A stretch of 64,000 nucleotides of DNA from Cyanophora paradoxa CCMP329 (taxonomy: Eukaryota > Plantae > Glaucophyta). Of the stretch, positions 3,462 to 58,509 are shown piece by piece; the first letter of the stretch is position 1; every line of letters begins with the position of its first letter. The translations under genes were made by a program, and so were the position numbers. The stretch is taken from assembly GCA_004431415.1 (NCBI GenBank), contig QPMI01000291.1, forward strand, positions 12,853 to 76,852. Direction: 5' to 3'. The notes under the pieces were generated by a model. That model was not told where the DNA came from and made no database searches. It saw only the letters and a program-made list of their open reading frames with translations.

Positions 3462-3610
3462 ATTATAGCTAGTAGTCTCTCAAAAAAAAAATATAGCTAG
3501 TACAGCATTAATATTATATAATAACTGTAATTCGGGTAATATTTAAGAGTCGAAATTAAGACCCCAAAATATTTAGTAATCCCGATTTTTGGCCGGTTTA
3601 TAATTTTTAA

Positions 3611-11335: not shown

Positions 11336-11367
<32 letters not shown>

Positions 11368-11608
11368 CAGCCCGAGCACTAGCCCGACGCCCAGCCCGAG
11401 CCCAAGCCCGTCGCCGAGCCCGAGCCCGTCGCCCAGCCCAAGCCCGAGCCCGTCGCCGAGCCCGAGCCCGAGCCCCAGCCCGTCGCCCAGCCCGAGCGCT
11501 AGCCCGACGCCCAGCCCGAGCCCAAGCCCGTCGCCGAGCCCGAGCCCTTCGACCAGCCCGAGCCCGAGCCCGTCGCCGAGCCCGAGCCCGAGCCCCAGCC
11601 CGTCGCCG

Positions 11609-11648
<40 letters not shown>

Positions 11649-23300: not shown

Positions 23301-26300
23301 GGCCATGGTGCGGGGCTTGAATGTGAGGATTCGGGTACCCGCCGCGGCGCCCCAGTACCCCGACGTCGCACCGGAGAGGCCCGAGTCGGTGTCGAGGATC
23401 TTGCCGCGCGCGTCCTGTACCCCCGGCGCGCGTGAGCCGCGCCCACCCCGCCCGGCCCCTCCCCTCGGGGCGCACGAAGGAGGCCTCCCACATGGATGGG
23501 CCGGTCCCGCCGGGGCCGGCGAGCGAGTTGTCGTACAGCCCGCTCCTCCACTGCTTCTCTGCGGCGGGCAAGAATGTGAGGCGCGCTCATGATCAAGTCT
23601 AACAGAAGCGAGCGGCGCGGCGCACTGTCGAGGTCGGAGGCGCCGAGGGTGGTCCCCGAGGTCGGCATCTCCCACGTCTCCAGGAAGTACCTGCGCGAGG
23701 GCGAGAGAGTCAGCCGCGGCCAGGCCGGGCTAGGCCGGGCTGGGCTAGGAGGCTATAATCAGGCCGCACCAGTCGCGGTCCCAGAAGGCGGAGCCGGCGG
23801 TGAGGCCGGGGGGGATGAACGTGACCCAGAGGCCGCCCCCGCCGGCGCCCGAGCCCCCGGGGAACTCCGAGTGCCCGATCGTCTTCAGCGACGCTGTGCC
23901 CGCGACCACGTACCCCGAGCCGTACGGGGGTACTGGCGCGGGGGCGGTAAAGGCCGCCGCCGGCAGCGTCGCCGTGATCTGCCGAGTTTCATCAGAGAAG
24001 CTCTCGAGAAACTGTACAAGATGTCGTGACCACGGGTTGATCTTACGCGTATAGATCTGCGCAAGTAGTTAAGCCCGGAAAACGCGGCAAGTTCGTACCA
24101 AGCGAGGGCGATACGCGCAGCAACTCTAGCTAGCGTAACTAGCTAAAGCAGGTGCCGTCGTACAGCCTTAAGACGCTAAAGGCGAGAGCCTTGAGGTCCC
24201 AAGACAGACTCCGCCCCGCGGAGACGACGCTCCCTAAGCCTGCCATTTGCATAGCATATAGGCCGTGTGTATATACATATACAGCGGCAGCTTCACAGTA
24301 CAGCTTGAGTCTCGCAGCCTCGAACCTGCCGTGGCCCGCGGCTCAGCACAAAAGTACGGGCATCATAACGGTGTACGGTTACAGTCAGTATATACGATAA
24401 CCGTGAGTACTCTGCTAGCCAGCCCGCACGCAGTTACGCTGATCCAGTCAGCCGCGATCTACGGCAAGTCCAGTCTGCCGCAAATGTACTGTTCAGTTCG
24501 AGTCGACTCAGATTAATAATAATATTAATGAATTTTATAAGAGAAGTCGAATCCGATTCGAAGCTTGAAGTTTGCAAGCTCCGACTCCGCAATCGGGAGC
24601 CTCGGAGGGCCACCTGACTGGGGCAGATTCCGTAAGACTTACTGTTAAATATTCGGCTCCGAACAGAGAAAAACTAAATCAGCAAGGAAATCATAAATGC
24701 TTCCTGAATAGGCTCGAAAACTGGAACGTCGCATCACATGATCAGATCGATCGTGCACGTTTCCCGGTCGTTCGAATTCAAGTAAACAGAATGACGTCAG
24801 GTCGCCCGGAAGCTAGTAGGAGATCGACGAAGGTACTCCAGCTGCTGTACAGCCTGTACTCCCGGTGTCGAAGAGAAAGGGGCAGTGGCGCAGGCTAGCC
24901 GTATTCGTAGTGGTAGACTAGTAGTTATGTATCGAGACGTATACGTAGCCATGAAGGGATGGTGATGGAGTCAAAGGACGGTACAACAGTAGACAATCAG
25001 GTAGTACTAGAGTCAAAGTAATCCAGATCATAAGTAGGAAGCTCGAGCGAAGGACGATGGGCCAGACGGATGTGTACTTGGGCAAGGCTTGCAAGCATAC
25101 GCAATATATATATATATTATTCTCGGAATACAGAACACAACAGGCGCGCTCATGATCAAGTCTAACAGAAGCGAGCGGCGCGGCGCACTGTCGAGGTCGG
25201 AGGCGCCGAGGGTGGCCCCCGAGGTCGGCATCTCCCACGTCTCCAGAAAGTACCTGCGCGAGGGCGAGAGAGTCAGCCGCGGCCAGGCCGGGCTAGGCCG
25301 GGCTGGGCTAGGAGGCTATAATCAGGCCGCACCAGTCGCGGTCCCAGAAGGCGGAGCCGGCGGTGAGGCCGGCGGGGATGAACGTGACCCAGAGGCCGCC
25401 CCCGCCGGCGCCCGAGCCCCCGGGGAACTCCGAGTGCCCGACCGTCTTCAGCGACGCCGTGCCCGCGACCACGTACCCCGAGCCGTACGGGGGTACTGGC
25501 GCGGGGGCGGTAAAGGCCGCCGCCGGCAGCGTCGCCGTGATCTGCCGAGTTTCATCAGAGAAGCTATCGAAAAACGATGCAAGAAGGCTCGCACGGAGGT
25601 GGTCGAGACGGCGCCAAGGCCGTTCGGGACGGCGACGTTGACGTCGAGAATGCGGAGCTGCGTAAAGTCGGCCGCGAGGCCCGTCGTCGAGAGCGCTTTG
25701 CCCTGTATCGAGAACGTGACCGCTGCGGCGAGGACGAAGAAATCAGGCGGGGCGGGCGGGCGGGTGGGGGGCGCGCTGACGGGCGGTGGGGGCCTTGACG
25801 ACGCGGGGGGATACCGAAGCGATCCCGAGGAACGAGATGGGGACGGGGTACACGATGTCCGCCAGCTTGACGCGCTTCCGCTGGTCCTGCCGGCGGGGAC
25901 CCCTTAGTAAAGCAGCAACAGGCGCTGGCCGGCCGGGAAGGGGGAAAGGGGGGGCGGGGCGGGGGCGGACCCGCATGGCGGCGCGCCAGCGCGCGTCGGC
26001 GCGGAAGAGTGAGAGGTACTCCTCGGGGCCCGGGATGCGCGCGTAGATGGAGAACTGCGAGGCCGAGGCGGCGCTGCCCCACACGCCGCACGCCGCCGGC
26101 AGCGAGAACTGCGCGCCGCCCGCTCGGCCCGCGGCCGGGCCCGAGGAACGGGCTAGGGGTACAGGTTCGGGGCCGGACCGGGGGCGTGACGAGCCACGTG
26201 AAGTCCCACGCGATGGCGCCGGCGTCGCCCGACCCCAGGCTACCTGTCGTGAACCCGGAGACCTGCGGAGAGGCTCGGGCGGCCCGGGTTTGGGTTCGAA

Positions 26301-42368: not shown

Positions 42369-44358
42369 TCAGTGGTGTGAGTGGAGGGCGCGGTGGCCGA
42401 GCCAGACGGCGGCGCCGACGAGGACGGCACCGCCGAGGGCGTTGCCGAGGGAGGACCAGAGGAGGTTGTGGGCGAGGCCCGCCGCGGTGATCGCCCCGCC
42501 CGCCAGCATCCCCGCCGGCAGCGTGAACATGTTCTGCCGGCGCGCGCGAGGGCGCGAGGGCGTACGCGTGAGGCTTCGTTCGCGCTTGATAACGCTAGGC
42601 CCTACTGCGAGGCCGGGGGGGGGGGGGGGGGGGGGGGGGCGCACGGCGACGGAGTGCTCGAAGCCGAGGAAGACGAAGGAGCAGACGGGGAGCCAGATCG
42701 TCGCCGCCTGCGCCGCGGCCGGGGAGGGAGCCCGTGAGGCGCGCACCCTGGGGGCGGGCCGGCCGAGGGCGGCGCTAGGCGTCGCTTCCTTGCTCCCCCC
42801 GATCGCTTGCCTACGCCTAGACGAGGGCGGGGAAGCGGGGGGGCGGGGGCGGGCCTTGGAGATCATGTCGCGCGAGGCGAGCGAGCCGTACGTCGCCGTG
42901 CACACCAGCCAGTTCGCCAGGATCCCCTGCGAAGAGAAGAGAACGCGCGCATCGGATCGCTGAGGAGAAGCTTGAGAAAGAAGAGGGGTACGGGACCTTG
43001 AAGAAGATGCGGGAGGCCGGCTGGAGGGCCTTCGCCTCCGCCACGTGCGCGAAGGCGTGGCCCACCGGGCCCGGCGCGAACATCCCCGCCGCGTTGCTGG
43101 GAGGGGGGTCAGGAGGAGGGGGCGGGGGCGAGGGAGGGGGAGGGTGGAGGGGGGTACGGGAGGTTACCAGAGCATCGCCATGAGGGCCGCGCCGACGAAG
43201 TTGCCGCACCACGAGACCGCCTGCGCGCGCGCGAGGTACCGCATCAGAAGGGGGATGGGGGAAGGAGGCGCGCGGGGGGTACGGGCGCGCCCAGCTGCGG
43301 GCAAGGTGGACCCAGGTGGTCTTCCCCTCGAGCGTCGACGTCGTCATGTACATCGTGTTCGTCGTGAACCTGGGTACAGAATAAGAAAGGAAAAGAAAAG
43401 GAAAGGGGGGTACGCGCACATCTCGACGCCGTAGACGAGGACGAGGAAGAGGCCGAAGGGGAAGAGGAGGGCGGAGATGGCCTTGGCGAGGCCGTACGAA
43501 AAGTCCGCGTCCGCGTGCGTCAGGTGGCCGAAGATCTGAAGAGAAGAGGAGCTCGGGTCAGCAGGGCAGGAGAAGTAGGTCTCTTGTTGAGAGAGGAGGC
43601 GCGCTGCGCGTGCTCACCGCAAGATTGAGTGTCATTGCGACGGCCTGCGCGGGGGCGGGAGGGCGGGCGGGCGGGAGGCGCTCAGGGAACGGGGAGGAGG
43701 CGGTGGAGGAGGGGGATGAGAAGAAGGGCAGGGGCGGGGGCGGACCACGAAAGCGCCTGCCATCATCGAGAGAACGAAGACTGCGGCGATGGGCGGGCGG
43801 GGCGGGTAGCACGCGTCGGGTCGGGCGGGCGGGCAGGGGGATAGCCGGGCAAGCGCCGGCACCTCGCCAGTTGGGCATCTTGCTCTTCTTGACGCCGGCC
43901 TCGACCGCGTAGTTAAACATGTCCACGCCTGTGCGTACGCGCTTGCGTGAGCGGTGGGCGAGCCTCCCAGCTAGCCCCGTCGCGAGTCCCGCCCCCGGCG
44001 GGCTAGCTGTAGCGCGAGTGGCCTGCCCCTCACGGGCGAGCGCACCGATCGGGGTCTTTTGGACTACGGGAACCGGCTGGTTATCCGTCCTCGGGGCGCC
44101 AGTCAGAGGGTTCACGTTCGGCGCCGGCCCCTCCGCCTGGGCGACGAGGAAGGGCCGGGAGAGTGGCGGGAGAAGGGTCGCAGCGCCCACGAGCCTCCTG
44201 CAGCTGCCGAAGAACGCGCGCTCGGGTGCGATCGCAGCCCGCACGATGGCGTGCGCCCGTCGGGCATCGCGCGACACTTGCGCGGGCCGGATGGCCGCGC
44301 CCTGCTGGAGCTGGACTCGCGAGGCCACGCCCGAGGGAAGAGTGACGACGAACGCCAT
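42369..44358 (-). CDS. Plastid-targeted formate/nitrite transporter (FNT; NAR1/LCIA-like), multi-exon
   Basis: AVEAGVKK; MMAGAFV; LFPFGLFLVLVYGVE; SWCGNFVGA; GILANWLVC; IWLPVCSFVFLGFEHSVANMF; NLLWSSLGNALGG; N-terminal transit peptide starting MAFV. Confidence 0.9.
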
Positions 44359-45168
44359 CGAGCTGTATCAGCCGCACTGACAGCTTGCGCTAGCCTGGGG
44401 CTGACGTAGGCCTACTCGGGCGGGCTGCGGTCTCGCTAGCGGGCTCTAGATAGCTGCACGATGCTTCCCACGACGCCCTGACGCTGTGCCCGCGACAGAT
44501 CCCGACCTTGCCTCTTGCCGCTTACCGCGAACTTAGAGCACTTCGTTCGCAAATCGCGCTGTATCCCCCCGCCAGCGAAAGCCTTGAATTCGAAGCGTCG
44601 ACTCTCCGAACGCGCAAGCGGCGCAACATGTACGCGCATTCCGGCGCGTCGCGCGGCTTGCTCTCAGCTGCAGCGCTTAGCGCTAGCTCGCAAGCGGCGC
44701 AATATGTACGCCTATTCCGGCGCCGGCGCCCGGCGCGTCGCGCGGCTTGCTCTCGGCACTGCAAGCTTGAGCGCTAGCTCGCTCAAGATCTGCGCATGCG
44801 ATGCGCGCGCGCCGCGGCGCGTGGGCCCAGGCCGCGCCGGCCGCGCGCGGCCGGGGGCCTGCGTATATGCATATGGGTACGTACCCCGCGGTCGCAGCCG
44901 GATCTGTCGACCCGCGGCCGGTACCCCTCAGGGGTCACCTCAGGGACCTGTACCCCTAGCCGGGCCGGGCCAGGCCTTCTGCGCCCCTGTACCCTTCTGG
45001 TACCCGGCCCCGCTCCTGATCACACACCCCCTCCGCAGGGGCCGGCGCCAAGAATAAGTATCTCTCTCATATAGAGAGCGATCGAGACACGAGGGAGGAA
45101 GGGGCAGGGGGCCAGCCGGCGCCTTCTGACGATCACGGGTCGTACCTGGAGTCGCCCCAGCGGACGCG

Positions 45169-45437
45169 AGTGGAGTATTACGCCATGGCTACATAAACGA
45201 AAAATCCCGAAATAATACAAATACATTCGAATTCCCCACGATATTCAGTAATACATACTTTTCATCGATAAATTCAATCGAGATATTCCCACTGACTCAC
45301 TGATATCATCAATCATTTCATTAACCCCCTGACGATATTCAGTAACAAAAACAAAAAACTCACGCCATGGCTACAATTACATCTTTATCATCTTTATCGT
45401 ATTTCATTTCCATTTCCCACTTATCGTTTTACTTCTC
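45169..45437 (+). repeat. Left terminal inverted repeat (269 bp)
   Basis: AGTGGAGTATTACGCCATGG...TTATCGTTTTACTTCTC is the reverse complement of 56371-56639; no mismatch noticed by eye. Confidence 0.97.
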
Positions 45438-45725
45438 TTGCTTCTTTTTAGCTAATTTTCTTTGTAGTCTATCTCTCACAGATCCTTTAAAAGTTACATT
45501 TCCTTTATCACCAGGATCATTACTAAGTATCAAATTTTGGAATTCGAGTTTTAAAGATTGTAGCATCGATGGTCTTATTTCATTTACTGCATTGTAACCG
45601 AGTGTGTGTTGTAAGAACTCTTTAAAAAACTCATCAAACTTTTCCATTGTTCTATTTTCTTCTTTTTCAAGAAATTGAAACGTATATCGGCAAGCATCCT
45701 TTGCTTTGATACCTTGCGATGCCAT
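45429..45725 (-). CDS. Viral hypothetical protein (98 aa)
   Basis: ATG-started ORF with element-like composition and an upstream AAAAAATGA..ATTTAA motif; stop lies inside the left TIR. Confidence 0.65.
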   Translation of the reverse strand: MASQGIKAKDACRYTFQFLEKEENRTMEKFDEFFKEFLQHTLGYNAVNEIRPSMLQSLKLEFQNLILSNDPGDKGNVTFKGSVRDRLQRKLAKKKQEK

Positions 45726-45999: not shown

Positions 46000-46275
46000 A
46001 GGTTATCATAGTTCTTCCCGGGTTATCATAGTTTTTCCCCCATTGTAACCGGACTTGCCCCCCCCATTGTAACCGACTTGCCCCCCATTGTAACCAACTT
46101 GCTCCCCCTTGTAACCAATCGATACCCGGTTGATATTTGTTTGTCGAAAACAAAAAACCAAAAAAACGCAAAAACACCGGACAAAAAACGACCTTTGTGG
46201 ACACCGGGGATACCGGGTTTGTGGACACCGGGGATACCGGGTTTGTGGACACCGGGGATACCAGTTTTGTGGTTA
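46000..46275. repeat. Cluster of short tandem repeats in the viral non-coding region
   Basis: GGTTATCATAGTT x2; CCCC(A/C)TTGTAACC x4 (~46037-46116); 24-bp TTTGTGGACACCGGGGATACC(G/A)G x3 (46194-46265). Confidence 0.9.
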
Positions 46276-46481
46276 TTTTGTGGACAAAATGCAAAAAAAC
46301 TAAAAAACAAACAAAAACGAAAAACGCGAAAAGACGAAGAAAACGGTTCCGAAAAACTACAAAAACTCGAAAAACAATCGAAACCGCCACGCAAACCGTC
46401 AAACCGCTGTATCTTTTCACCAACTCATCGCCTTGCAAAAACAAAAATAGCGCCGGAATGCTCTCAAAAAGCGCTACAAGG

Positions 46482-47249
46482 CTACATCGTAACCGTAGTG
46501 CCCTCGCGCTGTATGCGAGCCAACCGTTCCTTCTTTTGCAGTGCCCGCCTCTTGCCGAACTTCCGAGTCATCTTTTTCAAGTCGTCTTCCGATAGAATCG
46601 CCCGGTCTGTGTAAAACTTAACGTCGTAGCCTTGCAGACCCACGCAGACCACCTGATAACTATGACCCCATAGCCTATTCAATTCCTTAAAGTCTCTCTT
46701 ACTGAGACCACCATTATATTCATCAAAAGCACAGTTAAACTCTTTTTCGTTCCCTAATATATTAAAGAAGACCACGAATTCGAGGTTGCGCCTAATTGTA
46801 GTGCTTACTGAGCACATGCGTTGTGAATTCACGATGAGGGATATCATATAATGGCGTCCAGAGGTTACCAGCTTTTTCAAGACCATATTCGTCTCCATAT
46901 TTAGCGAGGATCCAATCATGTCATCTAATATCAAAACTAAGCTGTTCTTTCTCTCTCCCTTTTCGATTCGTTTCTTTTGCATCCCGATGAGCTTCACCAC
47001 AAGGTCATCGTTCCATTCCTCAAAGATATTATCGGTGTGTGTGATGTCTTGCCATTGACCAGTGAATGCGGTTGAACTAAAAACCACGACCTGATTGATT
47101 TGGTCGCGAAGCTCATACAGTAAATATTTCGCAAACGTAGTCTTACCAGTGTTACTACGTCCCCAGCAACCGATTCTTGTTGGTAAAACTATGTTCCTTG
47201 CAGGATCCAACTCAGGTATTTCATCCAGATTTATGGTTTCCTTATCCAT
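46482..47249 (-). CDS. A32/FtsK-like genome packaging ATPase
   Basis: Walker A GRSNTGKT; Walker B LILDD; A32 motif GRHYMIS...NSQ...IRRN. Confidence 0.93.
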   Translation of the reverse strand: MDKETINLDEIPELDPARNIVLPTRIGCWGRSNTGKTTFAKYLLYELRDQINQVVVFSSTAFTGQWQDITHTDNIFEEWNDDLVVKLIGMQKKRIEKGERKNSLVLILDDMIGSSLNMETNMVLKKLVTSGRHYMISLIVNSQRMCSVSTTIRRNLEFVVFFNILGNEKEFNCAFDEYNGGLSKRDFKELNRLWGHSYQVVCVGLQGYDVKFYTDRAILSEDDLKKMTRKFGKRRALQKKERLARIQREGTTVTM

Positions 47250-47294
47250 TACAGTAAAGATATAAAAAAACAGACAAAACGCGACACGCTACGC

Positions 47295-48518
47295 TTAGAA
47301 GTTGCTTACTTTGAGGGTTGACAGTTGATAGCCATTGATTACGAGGACATTGTGGCGAAGTGTGAAGATATCCACCACAACCGGGTTCGCATCAGTGCAG
47401 CCGTTAACTGTGAGGTTCATGTAGCTTGATGACGAGTTGAAAAAGTCCTGATAACCGAGAACCGAGTTGTGCAGCGAATCCTTGCCGGACTTGCTCAGAA
47501 CAACACCATAAACGCTTCCCTCAGCGACTCCAACAGCGGCACCACCTGTGCTCGCACCCTTGTAGTGAGAGGGGATGTGGTTCACAGCGGAAAGGAAGCC
47601 CGAGATTGGCTTATTTGAAATATCGAGGGTGCGATTGTTGTGGTAAATCTCGAAGTTGGTGATGTTGTAGGTTTCGCCCTTGCCATAGAAGCGAGAGTGG
47701 TTAACCGTTTTCAGATCCGCGTTCTTTCGGACTGTAAGCAGAACCGAGTGGACAAGTCCGCTTACATTAGCAAGCGAGACCTCAGTCGCAGTGTCGGCAT
47801 CCGCCGTTTTCAGTGGGCGGGTTTGCTTGTGGAGAACCTCAGTAATTGGGATGCGAATGCCACCCTCCTCGTTTGCCATTTTAAGCAGTCGCTCCGCCTC
47901 ATCAGAGGAGATGTTAACGAACTGACAAACGAGATGGCAATCGCTCATAGCGATGGTAGCATTCTGAGCAAGTGTAACAACAGTCGAAGCCCGGAAATCG
48001 ACCTCGATTTGGGGCATCTCGGCAAGTGCACAGAGAGGGAAGTAAGAGTCGTCCCACATTTGCGATGGGATCTTAACAATAAATTCACGAGAAGTGTTGT
48101 TAAGAACAATAGCGGCATCGTCCATGCCATAGGACGTGGCAAGAGCGCCGAGAGTGGAGGCATCGTTATCGATGATGGAATTTACAGTGATCCAGTCACC
48201 GGGTAACGTGAGTTTAAAACCACCATGGACGATTCGGACATTTTCAATGAAGCTACTCGCACAGTTTGGAAGGGTCGCATTGGCACCACCACCACCAGTG
48301 AGTTTAAAGTAGAGGGAGAGACCGCTGAGTAGCTGTTTGCGAGGGAGGTCAAAGACCGCAGTAGAAGCAAAGCCAAAGGTGTTGCCACGAGGCTTGACTG
48401 TTTCGATGAATGGCTTATATTTCGGGTTGGCGCCAATGACCAGACCAGGGGATAGATATAATTCGCTCGAATTGGGGGTGACGAGAAGCTCTTTAAGAGT
48501 GGTTCCAGCGAGCGCCAT
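47295..48518 (-). CDS. Double jelly-roll major capsid protein
   Basis: 407 aa, beta-rich; FGFASTAVFDLPRKQLLSGLSLYFKL, FIENVRIVHGG and YFPLCAL...IEVDFR resemble DJR MCP motifs; adjacent to the ATPase. Confidence 0.85.
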   Translation of the reverse strand: MALAGTTLKELLVTPNSSELYLSPGLVIGANPKYKPFIETVKPRGNTFGFASTAVFDLPRKQLLSGLSLYFKLTGGGGANATLPNCASSFIENVRIVHGGFKLTLPGDWITVNSIIDNDASTLGALATSYGMDDAAIVLNNTSREFIVKIPSQMWDDSYFPLCALAEMPQIEVDFRASTVVTLAQNATIAMSDCHLVCQFVNISSDEAERLLKMANEEGGIRIPITEVLHKQTRPLKTADADTATEVSLANVSGLVHSVLLTVRKNADLKTVNHSRFYGKGETYNITNFEIYHNNRTLDISNKPISGFLSAVNHIPSHYKGASTGGAAVGVAEGSVYGVVLSKSGKDSLHNSVLGYQDFFNSSSSYMNLTVNGCTDANPVVVDIFTLRHNVLVINGYQLSTLKVSNF

Positions 48519-48570
48519 TGTTTACTAATCGTGAACAAAATAATTTATACACGGATAGTAACGAACACAA

Positions 48571-49467
48571 ATGGGAAAAATACTAATCAATATCGATTCC
48601 AGGGATCGCGAAGCTGATTCTACCAGTTCCGCGAATTTCCGCTATAAACTTCCCTATCCTGTGAAGCGAGTCAAATCTTGCAGGATCACGAATTTCGAGC
48701 TATTTAATAATCTATACAACCTAACCGAAGATGGAAGCATTACCACAGTCACCTACGATAACATCAGTGCCCAGAAGACCCGGACAAACACCTTTAAAGC
48801 CGGAAACTACGACCCCACGAGCCTCGTTAATTACCTAAACGTTCTGATTGGCACACAGCAGTATGCGCAGAATGGAGGAGGAACCTACACCCGCAAATTC
48901 AAAGTGTTCTACGACTCAAACACCATGAAACTGAGGATCCTTTCGAATGAGGCGTTCGGTCTCCGGTTTGCCTCGCTTCCAGTGGCAAACTTTACAGGAT
49001 TCCAGGTCGCTGACAAACTGTATTTAGGTGCAGTGTTGGCAGTGAACGAAACGTATGATGCACTCGTTTACACACACGAATTATATTCGGAGGTTCCCCT
49101 CGACCTTCTTTATTACTCATACATGTTGCTCCACATTGAGCAGCTACGAGGCACTGTGATCAGTCGCAACCCATCCGATTGCTACGCAATTGCAAAGATC
49201 ATTCTCGACCAGCAAGTCGGAGCCCTGTTAAAATACGAGGGTTCCAATGCGACTATGGTAGCATCTGACATGATCGACCGAGAGCTTGAATACCTCGACA
49301 TCGCACTGAAATACTATAATGGGATTCAGGTCACCTTGCACAGCGATTGGAGCATGACGCTCGAAATCGTCACTGACGATGGTGGGAACAGAAACAAGAA
49401 AGACCTCAAAGCTATATTTGCCGATTTACAGGATCACCTCCTCCCATTCGATAGGTCATTTTCGTAA
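48571..49467 (+). CDS. Minor capsid (penton, single jelly-roll) protein
   Basis: N-terminal INIDSRDR...NFRYKLPYPVKRV...FNNLYNL and C-terminal LDIALKYYNG...DWSMTLEI match the penton-family pattern. Confidence 0.8.
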   Translation: MGKILINIDSRDREADSTSSANFRYKLPYPVKRVKSCRITNFELFNNLYNLTEDGSITTVTYDNISAQKTRTNTFKAGNYDPTSLVNYLNVLIGTQQYAQNGGGTYTRKFKVFYDSNTMKLRILSNEAFGLRFASLPVANFTGFQVADKLYLGAVLAVNETYDALVYTHELYSEVPLDLLYYSYMLLHIEQLRGTVISRNPSDCYAIAKIILDQQVGALLKYEGSNATMVASDMIDRELEYLDIALKYYNGIQVTLHSDWSMTLEIVTDDGGNRNKKDLKAIFADLQDHLLPFDRSFS

Positions 49468-49496
49468 ATTAATATCGCACCCTAAATTAAGAATCA

Positions 49497-50279
49497 ATGC
49501 CGCGTCAAGCTACCACCAAACCACGCAAAACCAAACCGAAAGATTACCTCAGCACGCCAGCAAGTTTGGCAGACGTGGATACACCCACTAAATTTGGAAG
49601 AGGCAAAGCAGACAAAGCCAAAGCAGTGTATCACGTTGGTGATATTGAGCGTGATGTCCACTCTTCGCGAAACGAGTTCATTCAAGGACAGATCAGTGAT
49701 CGAAACGATGCGAACGCTCTGATTGACGAAGTCCCGCTGAATAAGATGCCCGGTAACAAGAGAGGACGAAAGAAGGGAACGATCATAAATTCGACAAAGG
49801 AACGAATCGCTTCAAAGAAAGTATTACTGAAAGAGCTCGATATCGGCAACGTGTATTCGGTGCAGACAGGCGATCGCTACCGCTATTATCTTGCGAAGCC
49901 AGGCAAGGGCATATCCAGTCTCACACGAGCCAGTGCGAAAGAATTGGTGGAAGGCATTGCCAAAGAGACGAAGCTCGAAAACCAAATCATGGAGCAAAAG
50001 ATCACAAAGGAAAAGGTGGACGAGAAACCAGTGGTTGCATCGGAAGTACTTGCTGATCCAATTGCGCCAGCAATCAGTGCCACACCCGATCAGTTAATTG
50101 CGAAAACGATCGCACTACAAGACACCAACACCGCCACCAATCTCCCGATCGCAAACAAGCACATCCTGAAAATCGCCGCCTCGACAAGCGAGCCGCTTAA
50201 CTCCATTCCCCGTGTGTCCCAGCCATTTATTAGCGGATTCGCAAAGCTCGGATTAAAGCCAGGTTACAGGAGGCTCTGA
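49497..50279 (+). CDS. Viral hypothetical basic protein (260 aa), possible virion core/DNA-binding protein
   Basis: Intact K/R-rich ORF 29 bp downstream of the penton gene; no recognised motif. Confidence 0.7.
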   Translation: MPRQATTKPRKTKPKDYLSTPASLADVDTPTKFGRGKADKAKAVYHVGDIERDVHSSRNEFIQGQISDRNDANALIDEVPLNKMPGNKRGRKKGTIINSTKERIASKKVLLKELDIGNVYSVQTGDRYRYYLAKPGKGISSLTRASAKELVEGIAKETKLENQIMEQKITKEKVDEKPVVASEVLADPIAPAISATPDQLIAKTIALQDTNTATNLPIANKHILKIAASTSEPLNSIPRVSQPFISGFAKLGLKPGYRRL

Positions 50280-50595
50280 GCCGACCTTAATATTTTCTCG
50301 CCCAATAGTAGCGCTACGTAACAAGAACCTATCTCGTAGTGAGTGCTCGCGCATTTTATCCTTTTTTCGTAGGATCCATGTGCATTTCGCTTTCAACACC
50401 TGTTCTACCGGGTTCATTGGTAGTAACTTGGGCGCCCCCGACAAGTCAGCCCGCATCGGGCATCGGGGGCAGCGCTTATTTTTGTAGCTTCTACCGGTTG
50501 TAGGGGTCAAAAATTGATTACGTTCTGAAAAAAGGTATATCAAAGAAGAAAATCATTTAAAGATTTCTTGCTATATAGTAGCAGAGGTTGAGAGA

Positions 50596-50850
50596 ATGAC
50601 GACAAGTGCGGCTCAGAAGCGTGCAAATGCTAATTACCGGGCTACCGGGAAAGGCAAAATTGCGCTCCAAAAGAACAAGGAGAAAATGCGAAAAAAGGTT
50701 TACGAGCTTTATCAATCTGATGATTGCTATCGCTCGATGAAAATCGTTCAAGCAAGTCACCGTGCGTATTCCAACAATGCGATTTGTTTCGTGAAATTCT
50801 TGTTTGGCGTTCCCTATAATAATGTCGGTCGCCCATCTAAGTATATCTAA
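50596..50850 (+). CDS. Small basic viral protein (84 aa), putative DNA-binding
   Basis: MTTSAAQKRANANYR... basic helical ORF preceded by AAAATTGA and ATTTAAAG..TATATA motifs. Confidence 0.6.
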   Translation: MTTSAAQKRANANYRATGKGKIALQKNKEKMRKKVYELYQSDDCYRSMKIVQASHRAYSNNAICFVKFLFGVPYNNVGRPSKYI

Positions 50851-51056
50851 ATCCTTTTTCTCGGCGCGATTGAAGCTGAGGAAACGAATGCGCAACCGCG
50901 CTAAATAAAAATTGCTTTCGTGTTATTTTTCGAGCTTGTTTATCGAGCCAACCCTTTTGTTATTTTTGTGAAATTTCCGTCGGGCAAAAAATGACGCAGA
51001 ACTGAAAAAATGATTTAAGGATAATTTTCTTTGGATATATATAAGAACGCAACGAG

Positions 51057-54000
51057 ATGCCTCGCCCTTCCAACCGGTTGATCAGAAAGCTTAATGAAGA
51101 CACTATTGGTTACACTACTATGAGTCTTGTTCATGGATTGATGACAACAGAGCAAGCTAACCTTATTCTCAATGCGATAGCCAGGCGAATTACGTTAAAA
51201 ACGGCAAAAGATTGGAATGACACAGCAAAGGGAATTTACGAGAATAACCTTACAAAGCGCGAGGTGGGGGATGAGTTCCAAAGATTGGGTGCTATCGACG
51301 TTCCCCAGGAACTAACAGACCAGCGCCCGCAACGCAACACCAAGACACATATTAGCCGGTTCCAGAAGCTGATGAAAAATCTAAAAGAGAAAATCGAGAA
51401 TTTAGAGGGCGACACTGTGACTATGTATTTTCGTATGTATCGGTTGATTGTGACAAAAGCCCCCAAAAACGGAAGGGTTGTGGAAGAATGGGGTGACAGA
51501 TACTACCAAGTTCTCAAAGACAGAAAAGACGGTTCATTCCATTCGGTTAAATTGAAGAAAGACCTTTTCATAAAATCCCTCGATCTTGTGAACAGACCAT
51601 TTACCAATGTCCCATGTTTCGAAAAAAAAGCAATCCAACAATTCATTTTCGAAAACATGCAGTTTGGTAATAGAAACCCAGACTTAATCTATTTGAAAAA
51701 CGTTCACACAGGCACTTACAGTGATGTCCTGACAATCGAGAAGATAAGACCTGAGAACGATAACGACTTTATCCCCAGGATCGACCAGATCTTACGAGAC
51801 TATCAAGCGCCTATGATCCCATCTAAGTATCTTACTTACGAATTTGATGTTAACTCAAAGTCATTCAGTGATTTCTTTGATAAAACGAAGAACAAGGAAT
51901 TGAGAATTAAATCATGTGTGCATGATGCTATCATTGCTGTGTTTGCACCAGCGTTTGAAAAAGCCAAAGATTATGGGCGCTACGTTTCTATCAAGCTGAA
52001 TCATGCCTTCTTGTTCAAATTGGTGCATGGTCGGGATCCAGTTGATGGGGACGATATGGGATTATCATTACGACAAATTACCGATGCATTTCTGAAGCCA
52101 TACAAGCTTTCTATGATAGTAGTAGACGAGAATGATAAAGTGGACTATGCCCTATCCTATATTCCTGTGGATGCAAACGGAAAGAGAACGAGGAACAAAT
52201 TCCTCCGACCATCCACCATGTATGTAAAAGTGCAAAATGGACACATGTATTTGCTCAATAATAATGTTGAGAGCCTCATCCAATCTTTCAATGGATCTAA
52301 GCCTACTGAGAAAGATATGCCGTTGGGTTGCAGATACAGGCTAAGAAGAAACGATAACAACAGTGGTAGTTTTTTCGCAGCCAATGAGGATCATATTGTA
52401 GGTATTCTCCAATCAGATGAGGCAACAAAAAAGAACCTTATCCGCATCAACTACGGTGGTGCAGGTGGTCTCACTAAATTGTATGCTTCCTTCCTGACAG
52501 TGCATAATTACATAGCTGATGCCAGAATTTCGGTTCTCGGATCCATCCAAAGCATAAGGTTCAAGTATCAGAACAAGGATGTCATCATTATACCTGTGTG
52601 CCCAGAAGTCGAAGTTGAGACAGCTTACCACTTGCAGTTCGAGAACTCAGAGCAGCGGGATGCATTCACCAAATATAATAACATGTTCTACGAAGCATTA
52701 ATTAACAGATCCTTGAAGAGTTCCTACAACGAAAACACACGAAATGCTTTCGTGGTTGGTTCTCAAAGTGCCTTAAATGGTCGCTTTGAAGATTCCGCCG
52801 AAATCATTAAGGATTTGAATGATGGGTGCCTAAAAGTGTTCGAACACGATGGGTGCAAAGCGTATGCAGGTCATGTTAATTCATTTGAGTATTTCCCGGT
52901 ATTTAGCGAATTCGATGACTTTAAGGATGTGTCCATACAATCAGTTGCCGATGTGGAACCTTACAGCTTCTACTACGTGACTTTGAAGAAAGGACAATAC
53001 CTTATTAAGAAGGACTCTAGTGGAAAGGAGTGGGTGCAATATAGATATCCCAAAGCAAAGCGAATTCTCATAGATTCACCATGTAACCTGATCCCAGGGA
53101 TCATGCTCAAAGAATATTTCGATGACCTGATAGACATAATCGATGTAAAATACATCTTAAAACCATATCGAATTGTCAAGAACGTTGTTAAATATGTTAT
53201 CAAACAGATCTTAGAGAGCAACCTTAGCGAAACTGAGAAGAAGCAGATTCTTGTAAGTATTATTGGAATGCTCGGGAAACAAAAGAATCAGAGATCGCGA
53301 ACCAAACCGTTTTTCCTAAAATCGGATGCTATCGAGTTTGCCAGAAAGCATGGTGGCGACGTCAAATTACTGTGGCTCGGTGAGAAGAAGCCCAATCAAT
53401 CCACAGAAGCCAAAACCGAATCTCAAATCAAAGTCTCAAACTATGAAAAATGGATTCAAGCTTATGAAGAACGAAAACAAAAGAAAAATCAGGTTAAACC
53501 CGAAATTGAAGAAGAACATGCAATTGAAGATTACGAAAACCCCGATCGCATTGTTGCAGCTGAGGAGATAACAGACCCACACATTTGGTATGTGGAGAAA
53601 ATAGAAGAAAGGCTACTAAAAGATGGATTCCTTCCGATCCAAAATATGGTCTATTCAAAACAACGAATGGATCTGTATAAGAAGTGCAGGGAATCAAAGG
53701 GTGTCATTATGGCTCTTAAAGTTGATGCAGTCTATGAGGCAATCGACGAAAGCTTAGATGTAGAAGAAGTTAAATTCGATCGCACGAAGTATGAGAATAT
53801 CGGATGTTTCAGCACGAAACCTATATCTTTCAATGAGTATTGCAATAAGATCTTACAGAAGAAGCACGAGACTAAGAGGACAAATGGAATGATCCGATTT
53901 TTCAAGCCGGAGAGACTGAGGGATTTCGTTACTGTGAGAAAGAATGATTGCACAGCATACACGGTTCCCGATGAATTTGACACGAAAGCGATATGTGATA

Positions 54001-55337
54001 TGATGCTCTCCAAAGGGAAAGGCATAAGAATTGAGGGAAATGCCCCAGGAACCGGAAAGTCGTATGTGAGCAAGGCGATCGGTGCCAAATTCGACAGTTG
54101 CTTATATATCACGCCCACTAACAAGCGTGTCAAAGAAATGAAAGTCGAAGATGGTTTGGAGAATGTGATGACCATTCATGGTGCGTTCAATCTGAAAATC
54201 GATGATTCCCAAATGGACGATGTTGTGGGTGCGAATGCAAGCAAGATTGCACCTTATCAATGCATTGTTATGGATGAAGGCTACCAGCTTAGCATACCAC
54301 AGCTTGCAGCACTGAAACACATGATGAAAGTCGCCTACCCTGACAAGACCTACATTCTGAATGGTGACCCGTTGCAAAATCCACCTATTCAGTTCCTTAG
54401 TGTGGATCAGAAGGAATATTATAACGAGATCTTTGAGCAGCTCTTCCCGAGCTTGTTAGAGTTGCATGTGAATAAGCGCCACATTTTGCCAGAAGATCGC
54501 GAAAAGATTCTCGAATGGAAGCAAGATTTATTCGAAAAGAACATGGACATATCCGCATTCCTTGCAAAGCATAACATACCTGTTATTTCGCCTGATCAGT
54601 TGCGACCTGACGATAGAGCTATTACTTACACAAACCGCAAAGCAGCACAGGTTAATGCTATGATCCACCGCATTAAGTATGGTATAGATACGCCAACTCA
54701 TTTTAAAGGGCTCGAAATTATAGCAAAGCAGCGCCTGACGAAAGGGAAGACGGCAGATGACGAGAGTGTAATCATCCATAATGGATTCTCGTATATCATC
54801 GAGGATCTGAACGAAACCACGCTTACGATTTCAGACTACGCAGATGAAAGCATTAAAATAACGCTTCCATACGATTCAATCAAGCATTTCACGCTTCCCT
54901 ATGCTAATACGTGTCACGTTGTGCAAGGTGACACGGTAAAAAATAAGCGGGTGGTTGTTTTCGAGGCGCAATCGCCCCACGTCACCAAATATTGGTTGTG
55001 GGTCGCACTGACCAGGACACCATATTTGAAGGACACCGTGATTTGTGTGGATGAAAGCGAGATCTATGATATGGGCGCTTTCAAATCAAGAATGCATAGA
55101 CTGATTCAAGGTTATAAACATCAAGACAAGGTTGCAGGTCGCGATTTCGTCGAATCTATGTATGTTACTTATCCATGGATAAAGCAAAGATTCGGAATTC
55201 AGAATGGGCTTTGTTGGCGATGCTACCAAATTATGGATTACGATGAGGTCTCGGTTGACCGCGAAAACAATGCGGTCGCTCATGTTATCGGTAATATTTC
55301 CCTCTCTCATATTAAGTGTAACTGTGCGGCTCAGTGA
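51057..55337 (+). CDS. 1426-aa replication fusion protein: putative OTU-like protease + divergent family-B DNA polymerase core + SF1 (RecD/Pif1-like) helicase + HNH nuclease
   Basis: SF1 motifs GNAPGTGKS (K1001), ITPTN, TIH, MDE (D1073), GDPLQNPP, NKRH, YANTCHVVQG, VALTR. PolB-like motifs HDGCKAY (D598), KQILVSIIGMLG (K729), KVDAV (D890). SCV (C287)...GHMY (H396). C-terminal CWRC...SVDRENN..AHVIGN...KCN. Confidence 0.88.
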   Translation: MPRPSNRLIRKLNEDTIGYTTMSLVHGLMTTEQANLILNAIARRITLKTAKDWNDTAKGIYENNLTKREVGDEFQRLGAIDVPQELTDQRPQRNTKTHISRFQKLMKNLKEKIENLEGDTVTMYFRMYRLIVTKAPKNGRVVEEWGDRYYQVLKDRKDGSFHSVKLKKDLFIKSLDLVNRPFTNVPCFEKKAIQQFIFENMQFGNRNPDLIYLKNVHTGTYSDVLTIEKIRPENDNDFIPRIDQILRDYQAPMIPSKYLTYEFDVNSKSFSDFFDKTKNKELRIKSCVHDAIIAVFAPAFEKAKDYGRYVSIKLNHAFLFKLVHGRDPVDGDDMGLSLRQITDAFLKPYKLSMIVVDENDKVDYALSYIPVDANGKRTRNKFLRPSTMYVKVQNGHMYLLNNNVESLIQSFNGSKPTEKDMPLGCRYRLRRNDNNSGSFFAANEDHIVGILQSDEATKKNLIRINYGGAGGLTKLYASFLTVHNYIADARISVLGSIQSIRFKYQNKDVIIIPVCPEVEVETAYHLQFENSEQRDAFTKYNNMFYEALINRSLKSSYNENTRNAFVVGSQSALNGRFEDSAEIIKDLNDGCLKVFEHDGCKAYAGHVNSFEYFPVFSEFDDFKDVSIQSVADVEPYSFYYVTLKKGQYLIKKDSSGKEWVQYRYPKAKRILIDSPCNLIPGIMLKEYFDDLIDIIDVKYILKPYRIVKNVVKYVIKQILESNLSETEKKQILVSIIGMLGKQKNQRSRTKPFFLKSDAIEFARKHGGDVKLLWLGEKKPNQSTEAKTESQIKVSNYEKWIQAYEERKQKKNQVKPEIEEEHAIEDYENPDRIVAAEEITDPHIWYVEKIEERLLKDGFLPIQNMVYSKQRMDLYKKCRESKGVIMALKVDAVYEAIDESLDVEEVKFDRTKYENIGCFSTKPISFNEYCNKILQKKHETKRTNGMIRFFKPERLRDFVTVRKNDCTAYTVPDEFDTKAICDMMLSKGKGIRIEGNAPGTGKSYVSKAIGAKFDSCLYITPTNKRVKEMKVEDGLENVMTIHGAFNLKIDDSQMDDVVGANASKIAPYQCIVMDEGYQLSIPQLAALKHMMKVAYPDKTYILNGDPLQNPPIQFLSVDQKEYYNEIFEQLFPSLLELHVNKRHILPEDREKILEWKQDLFEKNMDISAFLAKHNIPVISPDQLRPDDRAITYTNRKAAQVNAMIHRIKYGIDTPTHFKGLEIIAKQRLTKGKTADDESVIIHNGFSYIIEDLNETTLTISDYADESIKITLPYDSIKHFTLPYANTCHVVQGDTVKNKRVVVFEAQSPHVTKYWLWVALTRTPYLKDTVICVDESEIYDMGAFKSRMHRLIQGYKHQDKVAGRDFVESMYVTYPWIKQRFGIQNGLCWRCYQIMDYDEVSVDRENNAVAHVIGNISLSHIKCNCAAQ

Positions 55338-56404
55338 TGGATACAGTGTTATCATACAAGAAATACATGCAGAAACTAATTAATGAAGGTGTAAGTTTTG
55401 ACGAGGCGAAACTAAAAAAACAGTTCGAGAACTCGGAACTACAACAGATTTTCAAGAAACCAAAAAGACCAAAGAGCTTTTTACGCATTGTAGCGAGACC
55501 CCGATCATTTCAAGTAGACATTATGTTTTTTAGAGGATTTCAAACAGCGAATAGAGGCATTGGTAAGGCGCTTAGTTTCATTGAGATTTTGAGCAGGAGA
55601 GCATTCGTTTATCCTTTCAAAGAGTCTTCCGAAATTCAGGGCATTTTAGATAGGTTTAAGCAGGATGCCGGGAAAGTTGTAGGATTGGCAGGAGATAATG
55701 AGTTTTCACAGAGAGTTTATCGTGAATGGTGCAGCGCAAATGGTGTGGAACTCTACACAGATGTAGCAAAAGACGACCACATTTCGGTAGGCAACAAGTT
55801 AGGTATCATAGATAGATTTACGAGGACTTTTAAGCAGTATCTGAGAAAGGCAATGATTGCAAAGGGAAGCTCGAAATGGCTCGATTTAGTAAAGGAAGTT
55901 TTAGACACATACAACAGTTCCCCACATTCCTCTTTGAAAAACGACACACCAAACAATGTATATAATAGTGACCACAAGCAGCTATATATTTACTTGCGGG
56001 ATTCAGTGCATAACGACCAAGTGAAAGATACTGAACAAGTTGATGTGAAACAAGGCGACACTGTTCGGGTGTTGGAGCCCAAAGGGATATTTGATAAAGA
56101 AGGTGCAAGGTTTAGCAAGAAAGTATATACAATTGGTGCAAAAGATAACAATAGGTTCAAAGTATTAGAAAATATGGATGGAGAAGTAAAGGAAGTTAAG
56201 AGACGTTTTAAAAAGAACGAGTTACAGAAAGTGAGTAAGGCTGATGTTATTAAGATTCCTGATCAAAAGAGGATTATAAGAGTTGCGAAAACGAATGAAG
56301 TAAATCGCAAATTAGCGAAAGAAGGGATCAAGCCGAATCGAAAGAATGTTGTAAGGAAGAAGTATAATCTGAGAAGTAAAACGATAAGTGGGAAATGGAA
56401 ATGA
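55337..56404 (+). CDS. Retroviral-like (rve) integrase, Polinton type
   Basis: FQVDIMF (D61), IEILSRRAFVYP, GDNEF (D120), GIIDRFTRTFK (D159), W...V...YNSSPHSSLK..P, SH3-like GDTVRV...FDK...FSKKVYTI. ATG at 55337 overlaps the upstream TGA. Confidence 0.93.
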   Translation: MDTVLSYKKYMQKLINEGVSFDEAKLKKQFENSELQQIFKKPKRPKSFLRIVARPRSFQVDIMFFRGFQTANRGIGKALSFIEILSRRAFVYPFKESSEIQGILDRFKQDAGKVVGLAGDNEFSQRVYREWCSANGVELYTDVAKDDHISVGNKLGIIDRFTRTFKQYLRKAMIAKGSSKWLDLVKEVLDTYNSSPHSSLKNDTPNNVYNSDHKQLYIYLRDSVHNDQVKDTEQVDVKQGDTVRVLEPKGIFDKEGARFSKKVYTIGAKDNNRFKVLENMDGEVKEVKRRFKKNELQKVSKADVIKIPDQKRIIRVAKTNEVNRKLAKEGIKPNRKNVVRKKYNLRSKTISGKWK

Positions 56405-56639
56405 AATACGATAAAGATGATAAAGATGTAATTGTAGCCATGGCGTGAGTTTTTTGTTTTTGTTACTGAATATCGTCAGGGGGTTAATGAAATGATTGAT
56501 GATATCAGTGAGTCAGTGGGAATATCTCGATTGAATTTATCGATGAAAAGTATGTATTACTGAATATCGTGGGGAATTCGAATGTATTTGTATTATTTCG
56601 GGATTTTTCGTTTATGTAGCCATGGCGTAATACTCCACT
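56371..56639 (-). repeat. Right terminal inverted repeat (269 bp)
   Basis: GAGAAGTAAAACGATAAG...CCATGGCGTAATACTCCACT. Confidence 0.97.
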
Positions 56640-58509
56640 GACGCGGGCGGCGGGCAGGGCCCTCGCGACGCCCTCCTCCGCCGCCCGCCCGAACGCCTCG
56701 TACCCGCTGACCTCCCCCTCCTCCGTGTTCGTTGTGGGGTCCACCAGCCGGACCTGCGCGAGCCGCCCTCATCAGGCCCAGAAATCTGAAGAAGTCTTGA
56801 ACAGAAGAGAAGAAGCTGCCTCGAGGTCCTCCGTGTAGCAGTTGGAGAAGACGCCCAAGTCGCGAAGGCGGTCGTTGGCCGCGGAGTAGGCGTGGACCAA
56901 GACGGAGAGGGCGAGCGCCCGGGGCGGGGCGGCGGCGAGGGCGGCGGCCGCCTCGGCGGGCGCGGGGCGGCCCGGGGCGATGTCGAGGCGGAGCTCGAGG
57001 TCCAGTCGGCCCCCCGCGGCCGCCCGCGCGAGGGCCGCCAGCTCCGGGAGCTCGGCGGACGACGGCTGCGAATCTGAGGCGGCGCGCTCGGAATTGCAGC
57101 GGCCAGGACGCGGGGAGAGGGGGAGAGGGGTACGGAGGTAGAGGCGCAGGGCGAGCTTCGGTGAGCGCTCGAGGGCCGTCCTCAGGCCGGCCAGGTGGCC
57201 GCCCAGGTCGACGGGGTACAGCTGGAGCGGCCCGAAGCTCCGGAGGGCGGGGCAGGCCCCCAGCCCCGCCAGCAGCTCATCCCCGGAAACGCCGCGCTGC
57301 ACCTGCGCGCGCCTCGGCGGTTCGAATCCGGCCGGTGCCAAAAGAGGAGAGGTGGTACCGTGAAGGGCCCGCTCAGGCGCTCGAGGGCGGCGAGCTTCGG
57401 CAGGGCGCGCAGGGCCTCGCTCGAGAGCTCCGCGCTGCAGTGCAGCCTGCGAATTCAAATTTTGAATTCAGTTTGAATTCAAAAAGAGGTCAAAGCTTAA
57501 GGACGCACTCGCGGAGGGAGCGGGCGGCGGGCCCGGCGGCGAGGGCGGCCAGGAGCGGCGTGGCGTCCTGTGCGCCGCACCGGACCTCCAGGCGCCCCAG
57601 CGAGCCGAGGGAGGCGAGGGGCTCGGCCGCCTCGTAGTCCCACACGTTCATCCGCAGCTGCGCGCCGGCGCGTTCACGATCAGAGATACACGGAGAAGTT
57701 TGCAGGCTGACCTGCTTGAGCCGCGGAAGGCATCGGACGAGGACGGCGGCGGGCTGGGGGCTGCCGGAGCAGCTGCAGCAGGCGGGGAGCTCCAGCCTCT
57801 CCAAGTTGGGGAAGGGGCGCAGGATGCCCTCCAGCTCGGCGCCGGCGGGCAGCCGCTGGCACTCGAAGGAGAGATCACCTCGGAACACGATGCTGCGGAG
57901 GGCGCCGCCCGACGCCGGCGCCGGCGCCGGCGCGCCGCCCGCGGCCGACGCCGGCGGGGCCAGGGCGCGTAGCAGCTCGCCGAGGCACGAGCGCGAGGAG
58001 CGGCTGCAGTACAGGTCGACTTCGCTGAGGCCGCCGCTCGCCGACGCGCACGCGGAGACGAGGGCGAGGGCGGCGCCCCAGGGCGTCCCCGGCTGGCTCC
58101 GCAGGTACCGCCGGGCGGGGTCGCCCTTGTGCTCCAGGCGCAGCGAAGCGCCTGCGCCGATGCGGATCCATCGCCGAACCGAGCCCGCGCCCCCGCCCTG
58201 AGCCGCAGCCTCAGCGGGACCTCCTATCATCACTGCCGCGAGCTGATCCACGCGCTCCTGGCGCGGCACGACGAGGTGCACGCTGCTCCATTGCACCGAC
58301 TCGATCGCCTGGCGCCACCGGCGGCACACGGCGCGTGCCGCTGCCGCCTCCAGAAGGCCGAGCCGCTCGAAGATCAGGCCGAGGACCGCGTCCGGCAGCT
58401 GAAGTCCGTCCGCCGAGTCCGCGCTGGTGAAGCTCGTGCTTGCTTGTCTGTTCGCATCAATACCCTTAGGCCTGTCCGCCCTTGTGTGCGTCCCGCTCCT
58501 GCCTCCCAT
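56640..58509 (-). CDS. Host F-box/LRR-like protein, multi-exon, last exon interrupted by the viral insertion
   Basis: F-box motif LQLPDAVLGLIFERL...ARAVCRRWR; LRR-like FPNLERLEL, LPRLKQVSL, CPALRSF; exon starting at 56753 runs in frame into the TSD. Start Met at 58509 is a guess. Confidence 0.75.

Follow-up and report, generated by a model that had tools for sequence, protein, structure and literature searches.

Can the fused replicase of a virus lodged in a glaucophyte genome still polymerise DNA, and can it free its own primer? The question is raised by a 64,000-nucleotide stretch of Cyanophora paradoxa CCMP329 (contig QPMI01000291.1, positions 12,853 to 76,852; the window), in which we find an intact, integrated polinton-like virus (PLV) of 11,471 bp and 42% GC between flanks of 72% GC. 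Its replicase almost certainly belongs to the pPolB-S1H (Tlr1-like helicase) family, in which a DNA polymerase of family B that uses a protein primer (pPolB) is fused to a superfamily 1 (SF1) helicase. We read it as an intact pPolB-S1H replicase that is predicted to be an active, non-proofreading, protein-primed and self-cleaving polymerase with its own helicase, and we give this reading as a whole a probability of about 0.78. Taken separately, polymerase activity is, from the conserved residues, very probable, and self-cleavage by the viral ovarian tumour-type protease (vOTU) is predicted with somewhat less assurance, as probable. The architecture and the predicted activity are already published and hence not new; this copy is an additional member of the family.

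The replicase open reading frame (ORF) is uninterrupted over 1426 codons. An earlier note, made from the DNA letters, had read in it a single ORF with, in order, a putative protease, a PolB core, an SF1 helicase and an HNH-like tail; this order holds, and the residues it named all lie where it had placed them. A search with residues 1-1000 against 1.84 billion representatives returned 91 matches, of which 62 homologues of at least 1150 aa were aligned and 29 shorter ones excluded. Invariant columns number 15 of 1426 and include C287, H396, D598, K729 and D890 (each 62/62), despite an overall identity of only 19-23%. As a control, within residues 240-935 one of nine Cys, one of 12 His and three of 48 Asp (598, 620 and 890) are retained in at least 61 of the 62 homologues, while the remaining Cys and His reach at most 11/62 and 15/62. 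The nine core catalytic residues tested occur together in 61/62. The earlier note had proposed C287/H396 as a protease dyad, D598 and D890 as retained metal ligands and K729 as motif B, and had suggested checking their conservation; given the invariance of all five, the free variation among homologues that it named as contrary evidence is not what the alignment contains.

Profile and word searches were of little help. The Pfam PolB, OTU and HNH families had no match in 25 family members, a word-based protein search with residues 260-960 found none among 4544 candidates, and single-sequence PDB searches of the replicase and of the major capsid protein (MCP) gave nothing useful. Structural comparison was carried out on an AlphaFold2 model of residues 1-1000 (45 sequences; mean predicted local distance difference test score, pLDDT, 74), in which most of 240-930 is modelled with high confidence and both 1-95 and 777-838 with low confidence. 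The nine top-ranked Foldseek matches are without exception phi29 polymerase (best E 6.7e-6). VIA superposes model residues 433-936 on residues 5-502 of the phi29 chain with Z 14.7-15.1 (361 aligned, root-mean-square deviation, rmsd, 4.8), whereas RNA-primed PolBs stay at Z 8.0 or less, far under phi29. In a viral structure library the best match is an unnamed 999-aa protein (E 5.9e-17), followed by bidnavirus-type and mavirus polymerases, with phi29-like pPolBs also among the matches. Beta-rich segments at 612-708 and 743-853 stand where TPR1 and TPR2 are expected, and are candidates for these subdomains by position.

Upstream of the palm, residues 252-405 resemble OTU proteases: VIA gives Z 6.0-6.1 against Otu2 (rmsd 3.4, 105-107 aligned), and Foldseek ranks 11 and 15 are the OTU structures 7MIC and 4BOZ (E 0.25 and 0.38). 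These are the two OTU structures shown by Krupovic et al. 2024 (PMC11161782). The model also places the catalytic residues as described there, with C287 at the start of a helix, H396 at the start of a strand, D598 at the end of a strand and D890 in a hairpin turn. The comparison with phi29 polymerase (Z 14.7) and OTU (Z ~6) that the earlier note had suggested thus matched both folds. Its N-terminal region of ~280 aa, by contrast, was drawn too long, since the protease fold begins at ~252.

Between protease and palm, residues 433-530 form a confidently modelled domain (core pLDDT 86-97) that is likely a dead half-exonuclease, because it occupies this position and because the alignment to phi29 runs through it continuously. 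Refolded with short flanks (41 sequences), it aligns over 98 residues with phi29 residues 5-185 (Z 4.6, rmsd 4.2), which we take to be the exonuclease domain. A glyoxalase scores higher over a shorter stretch (Z 5.1, 63 residues), so that the fold match carries little weight by itself, and Foldseek with the refolded model returned nothing at E ≤0.001, polymerases ranking 1, 3 and 4. Residues 416-545 hold no conserved acidic motif, and no acidic column there exceeds 31/62 for one residue, which agrees with the earlier note's recognising no exonuclease motifs. The available text of PMC11161782 mentions an exonuclease remnant in mavirus alone and concludes that the loss occurred twice independently; the remnant proposed here bears on whether mavirus and the pPolB-S1H viruses lost proofreading separately.

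The N-terminal domain (residues 93-232) lies in the position of a terminal protein (TP). Among the best 50 rows for the 1-1000 model, in which this domain was folded together with the rest, neither a Y-polymerase little-finger nor a TP fold appeared. In terminal proteins the nucleotide-linking residue is found between the last helix and the last strand (PMC11161782). Here the T220 column, five residues ahead of the domain's last strand, is Ser in 35/62 homologues against a background of 6%, and in 32/62 when Ser, Thr and Tyr are masked from the aligner, counts that are uncorrected for kinship among the homologues. A five-residue window at this column contains Ser or Tyr in 61/62, compared with 44% of control windows, and the conserved Ser precedes the catalytic Cys by a median of 70 residues. 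A second Ser-rich column (21/62) follows nine residues downstream, which makes the assignment a candidate; we judge the odds that the linking residue lies within 220-222 to be about even.

At the other end of the protein, the helicase family profile matches RecD, Pif1 and Dda in the PDB (E 1e-15 to 1e-5), and a Walker A at 994-1002 together with motifs Ia-VI makes up the full SF1 set listed in the earlier note. The tail carries Cys and His residues at 1386-1422, with three Cys retained in 50/62 homologues; it reaches HNH in PHROG with E 0.059 and has no HNH match in Pfam. HNH nucleases use a catalytic His at the position matched by R1402, and this residue is Arg in 52/62. The zinc-binding, HNH-like character claimed for the tail therefore stands (endonuclease VII, E 5.9e-4), while an active HNH enzyme is doubtful on account of R1402.

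Taken together, a mechanism can be proposed. The vOTU protease would free the N-terminal primer domain, C287/H396 cutting between residues 232 and 252, and the hydroxyl of T220, Y221 or S222 would accept the first nucleotide where the inverted repeat starts with AGT. The fused SF1B helicase would unwind the template for protein-primed synthesis, residues 433-530 would persist as a structural leftover of the exonuclease, and DNA binding would be the tail's main role. One early transcript may serve for both replicase and integrase, probably made by the RNA polymerase of a co-infecting giant virus. More tentative is a wider proposal, in which the fusions retain the same dead half-domain as mavirus, possibly through one ancestral loss, the family-wide Ser serves for priming, and polymerisation in one subclade does without the motif-B Asn.

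Several observations weigh against our reading. The polymerase motifs are degenerate, as the earlier note had remarked: K888 replaces the first Asp of motif C (Asp in 1/62), V889 its Thr (Thr in 50/62) and V733 the Asn of motif B (Asn in 50/62). The OTU Z of ~6 falls in a range that the tool calls common, no fold matches the primer domain, whose pLDDT is 48-74 in the 1-1000 model, and phmmer with residues 1-240 recovers 0/91 homologues. A literature search for an activity assay or a linking residue in the family found nothing relevant beyond the available text of PMC11161782, subscription journals lying outside its coverage. The promoter pattern described below was derived from the window itself, and RNA support for this copy is faint (depth 2-12), a weak hint.

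The motif substitutions invite the view argued in PMC5499653, that the palm is inactivated; it would then be a dead scaffold; with the helicase loaded at the ends of the genome, the DNA would be copied by a polymerase of the host or of a giant virus. The first Asp of motif C is indeed gone here and in 61/62 homologues. In a FastTree tree (630 columns, midpoint root, 62 unnamed homologues and this replicase), the motif-B Asn is lacking in 9/9 members of the clade that includes this replicase (support 0.997) and in 4/54 homologues outside it; since the whole clade lacks it, the loss is inherited and not decay. D598, K729 and D890 nevertheless remain invariant across all 62, even where the Asn is gone, and active polymerases are also known without that motif C Asp, according to PMC11161782, which withdrew the 2016 'inactive' reading. 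We therefore hold a dead palm to be improbable. A rather better, though still unlikely, case can be made for an active polymerase that does not cleave itself; the vOTU would counter host defence by deubiquitination, and synthesis would start from the whole protein or from a host primer. The solved matches of residues 252-405 are all ubiquitin/ISG15-cleaving OTU enzymes or viral protease/deubiquitinases, the fold of the primer domain is unmatched, and some linear genomes have uncut polymerases (PMC11161782). In those cited cases, however, the protein either lacks a vOTU or carries an inactivated one. Here the dyad is invariant, and the protease keeps a fixed place, after an N-terminal domain that bears the Ser and before the palm; moreover, the two roles are compatible.

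The earlier note had gone further and regarded the protein as an evolutionary intermediate, separate from the known fusions, between active pPolBs and dead polymerase-helicases. The probable exonuclease remnant, which PMC11161782 in its available text gives for mavirus but not for pPolB-S1H, would suit such a position. Yet the architecture and predicted activity match what that paper describes as the family norm, the nine core residues are common to nearly all homologues, and the Cys-His, His-Asp and helicase spacings are near the family medians; an intermediate is thus very improbable. What survives of the proposal is its other half, a likely active polymerase predicted to release its own primer: the catalytic residues are invariant, and PMC11161782 makes the same prediction. 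Our preferred reading thus remains that of an intact, predicted active and self-cleaving pPolB-S1H replicase.

The element carrying this replicase is bounded by terminal inverted repeats of 269 bp that are 100% complementary, and by a 6-bp target duplication, GACGCG, at both borders; the perfect repeats and the duplication indicate recent integration. Eight ORFs of at least 80 aa were accepted as genes and occupy 83% of the element (see table). The integrase start overlaps the replicase stop (TGATG). Besides the replicase, no polymerase gene was recognised among the eight ORFs, and no protease family that could supply a capsid-maturation protease was matched among the other seven. The likely MCP ORF matched Atlas clusters with Capsid_N/Capsid_NCLDV in 12-18% of their members, the recognition value being under the tool's threshold; it had no match in Pfam, PHROG, the PDB or a word search (0/7993 candidates). 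Scans of viral contigs with the integrase, MCP, replicase and P0003 found no loci, two stretches passing the check in one scan, and a phage tblastn gave no match.

Features of the integrated element and of its replicase (positions in the window; residues refer to the replicase).
Feature	Position	Strand	Basis or detail
Left target-site duplication copy (GACGCG)	45163..45168	+	6 bp
Left terminal inverted repeat	45169..45437	+	269 bp, starts AGT, complementary to 56371-56639
98-aa ORF, no assigned function	45429..45725	-	AAAAATGA motif 45 nt upstream
Non-coding short tandem repeats	46001..46345		units of 20, 21, 24 and 8 bp
A32-like genome-packaging ATPase, 255 aa	46482..47249	-	Pfam Pox_A32, E 6.5e-10
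Likely MCP ORF	47295..48518	-	Atlas score 0.98, features alone
298-aa ORF, probable minor capsid protein (candidate)	48571..49467	+	size and position; Atlas 0.98, unnamed viral clusters
260-aa basic ORF	49497..50279	+	no family match
84-aa basic ORF	50596..50850	+	AAAATTGA 86 nt upstream; longer shared motif 50549-50577
Replicase promoter-like region	50987..51041	+	two AAAAATGA motifs; AAAATSATTTAARGA-N-TATATA ends 15 nt before ATG
pPolB-S1H replicase, 1426 aa	51057..55337	+	ORF, homologues, structural model
Alpha/beta domain in TP position, putative primer domain, residues 93-232	51333..51752	+	secondary structure, pLDDT 48-74
Candidate nucleotide-linking residue(s) T220-Y221-S222	51714..51722	+	Ser-enriched column
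vOTU papain-like protease, residues 252-405, C287/H396	51810..52271	+	VIA OTU matches; dyad 62/62
Likely catalytically dead exonuclease remnant, residues 433-530	52353..52646	+	phi29 alignment, position
Protein-primed PolB palm/fingers, residues 531-936, motifs A D598, B K729, C D890	52647..53864	+	model
SF1B (RecD/Pif1/Dda-type) helicase, residues 980-1335	53994..55061	+	Pfam AAA_19, E 1.8e-8
Zinc-binding HNH/endonuclease VII-like tail, residues 1345-1426	55089..55334	+	PHROG endonuclease VII, E 5.9e-4
Retroviral-type (rve) integrase, 355 aa	55337..56404	+	Pfam rve_3, E 1.8e-4, under curated cut-off; acidic motifs at 61, 121, 159
Right terminal inverted repeat	56371..56639	-	269 bp
Right target-site duplication copy (GACGCG)	56640..56645	+	6 bp

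The repeats reach into both outermost genes: the right one contains the final 11 codons of the integrase (56371-56404), and the 98-aa ORF terminates at the edge of the left one (45429-45437). Candidate joints of an empty site (44737>56922 and 44826>56928) were rejected, because their 21-letter sides lie in GC-rich repeats and they miss the target site.

Transcriptional signals were sought within the element itself. The motif AAAA[AT]TGA occurs five times: four occurrences precede the starts of the replicase, 84-aa and 98-aa genes by no more than 100 nt, and none stands ahead of the ATPase, capsid or 260-aa genes. The longer pattern AAAATSATTTAARGA-N-TATATA, at 50549-50577 and 51007-51041, stands 15-18 nt ahead of two start codons; a chance test within the window was disregarded as circular. 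This pattern, common to the replicase and the 84-aa gene, matches 117 viral stretches, and 22 of the 80 listed are, by an eye count, named giant-virus bins. A frame of at least 60 codons starts within 60 nt downstream in 61/93 distinct matches, as against 8/88 on the opposite strand and 133/810 random positions; in viral contigs it thus acts like a promoter. In the DNA available, these 117 loci contain no relative of the replicase, MCP or integrase, and one has an A32 ATPase. In Gezel-14T, a mimivirus early motif, the same AAAA[AT]TGA in the case of the replicase, precedes the replicase and recombinase, and that element depends on its giant virus. Giant-virus-type early motifs ahead of non-structural genes thus hint, by analogy, at helper dependence of the present element. 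Between the divergent capsid genes lies an AT-rich spacer of 52 bp (48519-48570), which has no early motif and is likely a two-way late promoter.

Of 24 sequencing runs listed, 15 contain at least half of the element's words, all under a single organism label. In DNA run X2, contig depth is 175-221 over the replicase, 297-356 over the capsid genes and 65-83 in the flanks; in DNA run X13 the corresponding values are 115-135, 145-170 and 17-19, and the capsid genes differ by 2-3% in the contigs of both. This points to several copies with the capsid module more numerous, depth not being equal to copy number. The capsid genes (47000-50000) are deeper and 2-3% divergent, the replicase (51400-55700) near-identical and shallower; in this genome the capsid module may be combined with other replicases. 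The tandem repeats at 46001-46345 are also variable from copy to copy: both DNA runs have joints that skip 253-264 nt there. Among five runs guessed to be RNA, a spliced host intron is seen in X16, X19 and X21, and X16-X19 hold contigs identical or nearly identical to this replicase and integrase, those of depth 2-12 mentioned above. A diverged sibling over the helicase (54069-54933, ~87-91% identical) reaches a depth of 273-468 in X16-X19 and 16 in X21. It has gaps of 14, 69 and 64 nt relative to this copy, of which those of 14 and 64 nt are not listed for the two DNA runs; they may stem from the splicing of a viral transcript, or the sibling may be a copy that has decayed but is transcribed. 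Relatives of the ATPase, capsid and integrase genes are also deep in RNA-like runs, and a lack of RNA contigs across the capsid genes is given no weight as evidence.

The flanking DNA is eukaryotic and carries genes for a choline transporter, a formate/nitrite transporter and an F-box protein, as well as spliced introns. The intron-rich formate/nitrite transporter gene (42369-44358) starts 810 bp from the element's left end, and the N terminus of its product resembles a plastid transit peptide of the glaucophyte kind, which makes an algal host likely. Farther away, a 149-bp tandem array lies within a large imperfect palindrome of GC below that of the host (3593-6729; possibly a foldback element), and at 11105-12353 units of 12 and 18 bp are arrayed within long open frames, next to a stretch of 46-49% GC at 8000-11000. 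Direct repeats of at least 300 bp (23579-23878 and 25142-25441), 99% identical and 1563 bp apart, flank a lower-GC stretch, possibly a small insertion of long terminal repeat type.

The family is common, and specialists will find the architecture unsurprising; in print, its activity turned from 'inactive' (2016) to 'predicted active' (2024) by computation alone. Conservation across 62 homologues favours activity, and C287, H396, D598, D890 and T220-S222 are targets for point mutants. On the wider proposal above, this intact copy with giant-virus-type early promoters and transcribed relatives in its host would offer a ready test of the unproven self-cleaving, protein-primed claim.

Comparison with known systems places the element as follows; besides the papers named, the literature drawn on includes PMC12721341, PMC10120064, PMC8502044 and bioRxiv 2026.06.19.733378, 2026.10.13.758929 and 2022.07.28.501842. 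Phi29, the best solved match of residues 433-936, has an active exonuclease and a separate terminal protein and lacks both protease and helicase. Classical Polintons/Mavericks have exonuclease motifs and a capsid-maturation protease gene, neither of which was found here. Transpovirons have no capsid module, unlike this element with its ATPase and likely MCP, and in OmPLV-type Helicase SF1-pPolB proteins the helicase is N-terminal to a full pPolB with exonuclease, the reverse of the order here. The mavirus pPolB (TP-vOTU-palm) is the fourth structural match in the viral library (E 1.9e-7); mavirus shares the rve integrase and an exonuclease reduced to a remnant (likely so here), but its helicase is a separate SF3 protein and its capsid is that of a virophage, with a protease (PMC11161782), whereas here the SF1 helicase is fused and the capsid looks like that of nucleocytoplasmic large DNA viruses. 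Integration, inverted ends, an rve integrase, ATPase and pPolB-S1H are common to this element and Tetrahymena Tlr1 (PMC5499653, PMC11161782), both without a maturation protease, and the likely MCP and the candidate minor capsid protein would also correspond to those of Tlr1; the Tlr1 tail is GIY-YIG and the present one HNH-like. At 11.5 kb and eight ORFs the element is smaller than the 14-40 kb quoted for PLVs (PMC12220804).

Within the pPolB-S1H family itself, this replicase differs from the published descriptions, a contrast drawn from description, in the Val for Asn in motif B, in the insertion at 777-838 (columns 770 and 842 enclose 73 residues here, more than in 60/62 homologues) and in a 100-residue phi29-exonuclease-like domain between vOTU and palm, which the available text of the papers describes as lacking. 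PMC13215967 reports 358 complete elements, many of groups 2-3 having this fusion ('PRT-pPolB' SF1, pMVRE), and its supplement lists the glaucophyte Cyanophora in 12 rows, the two shown being group 2. PMC11161782 describes TP-vOTU-palm-S1H proteins with HNH or GIY-YIG tails, a conserved Cys and His and a palm predicted to be active. Like the pPolB-S1H proteins found in PLVs, in Tlr1 and in transpovirons (PMC11161782; PMC5499653), the Cyanophora replicase falls in the 1000-1400 aa size class, lacks the first motif-C Asp and the exonuclease motifs, and has the same order of putative TP-like domain, vOTU, palm, SF1B helicase and HNH-like tail.

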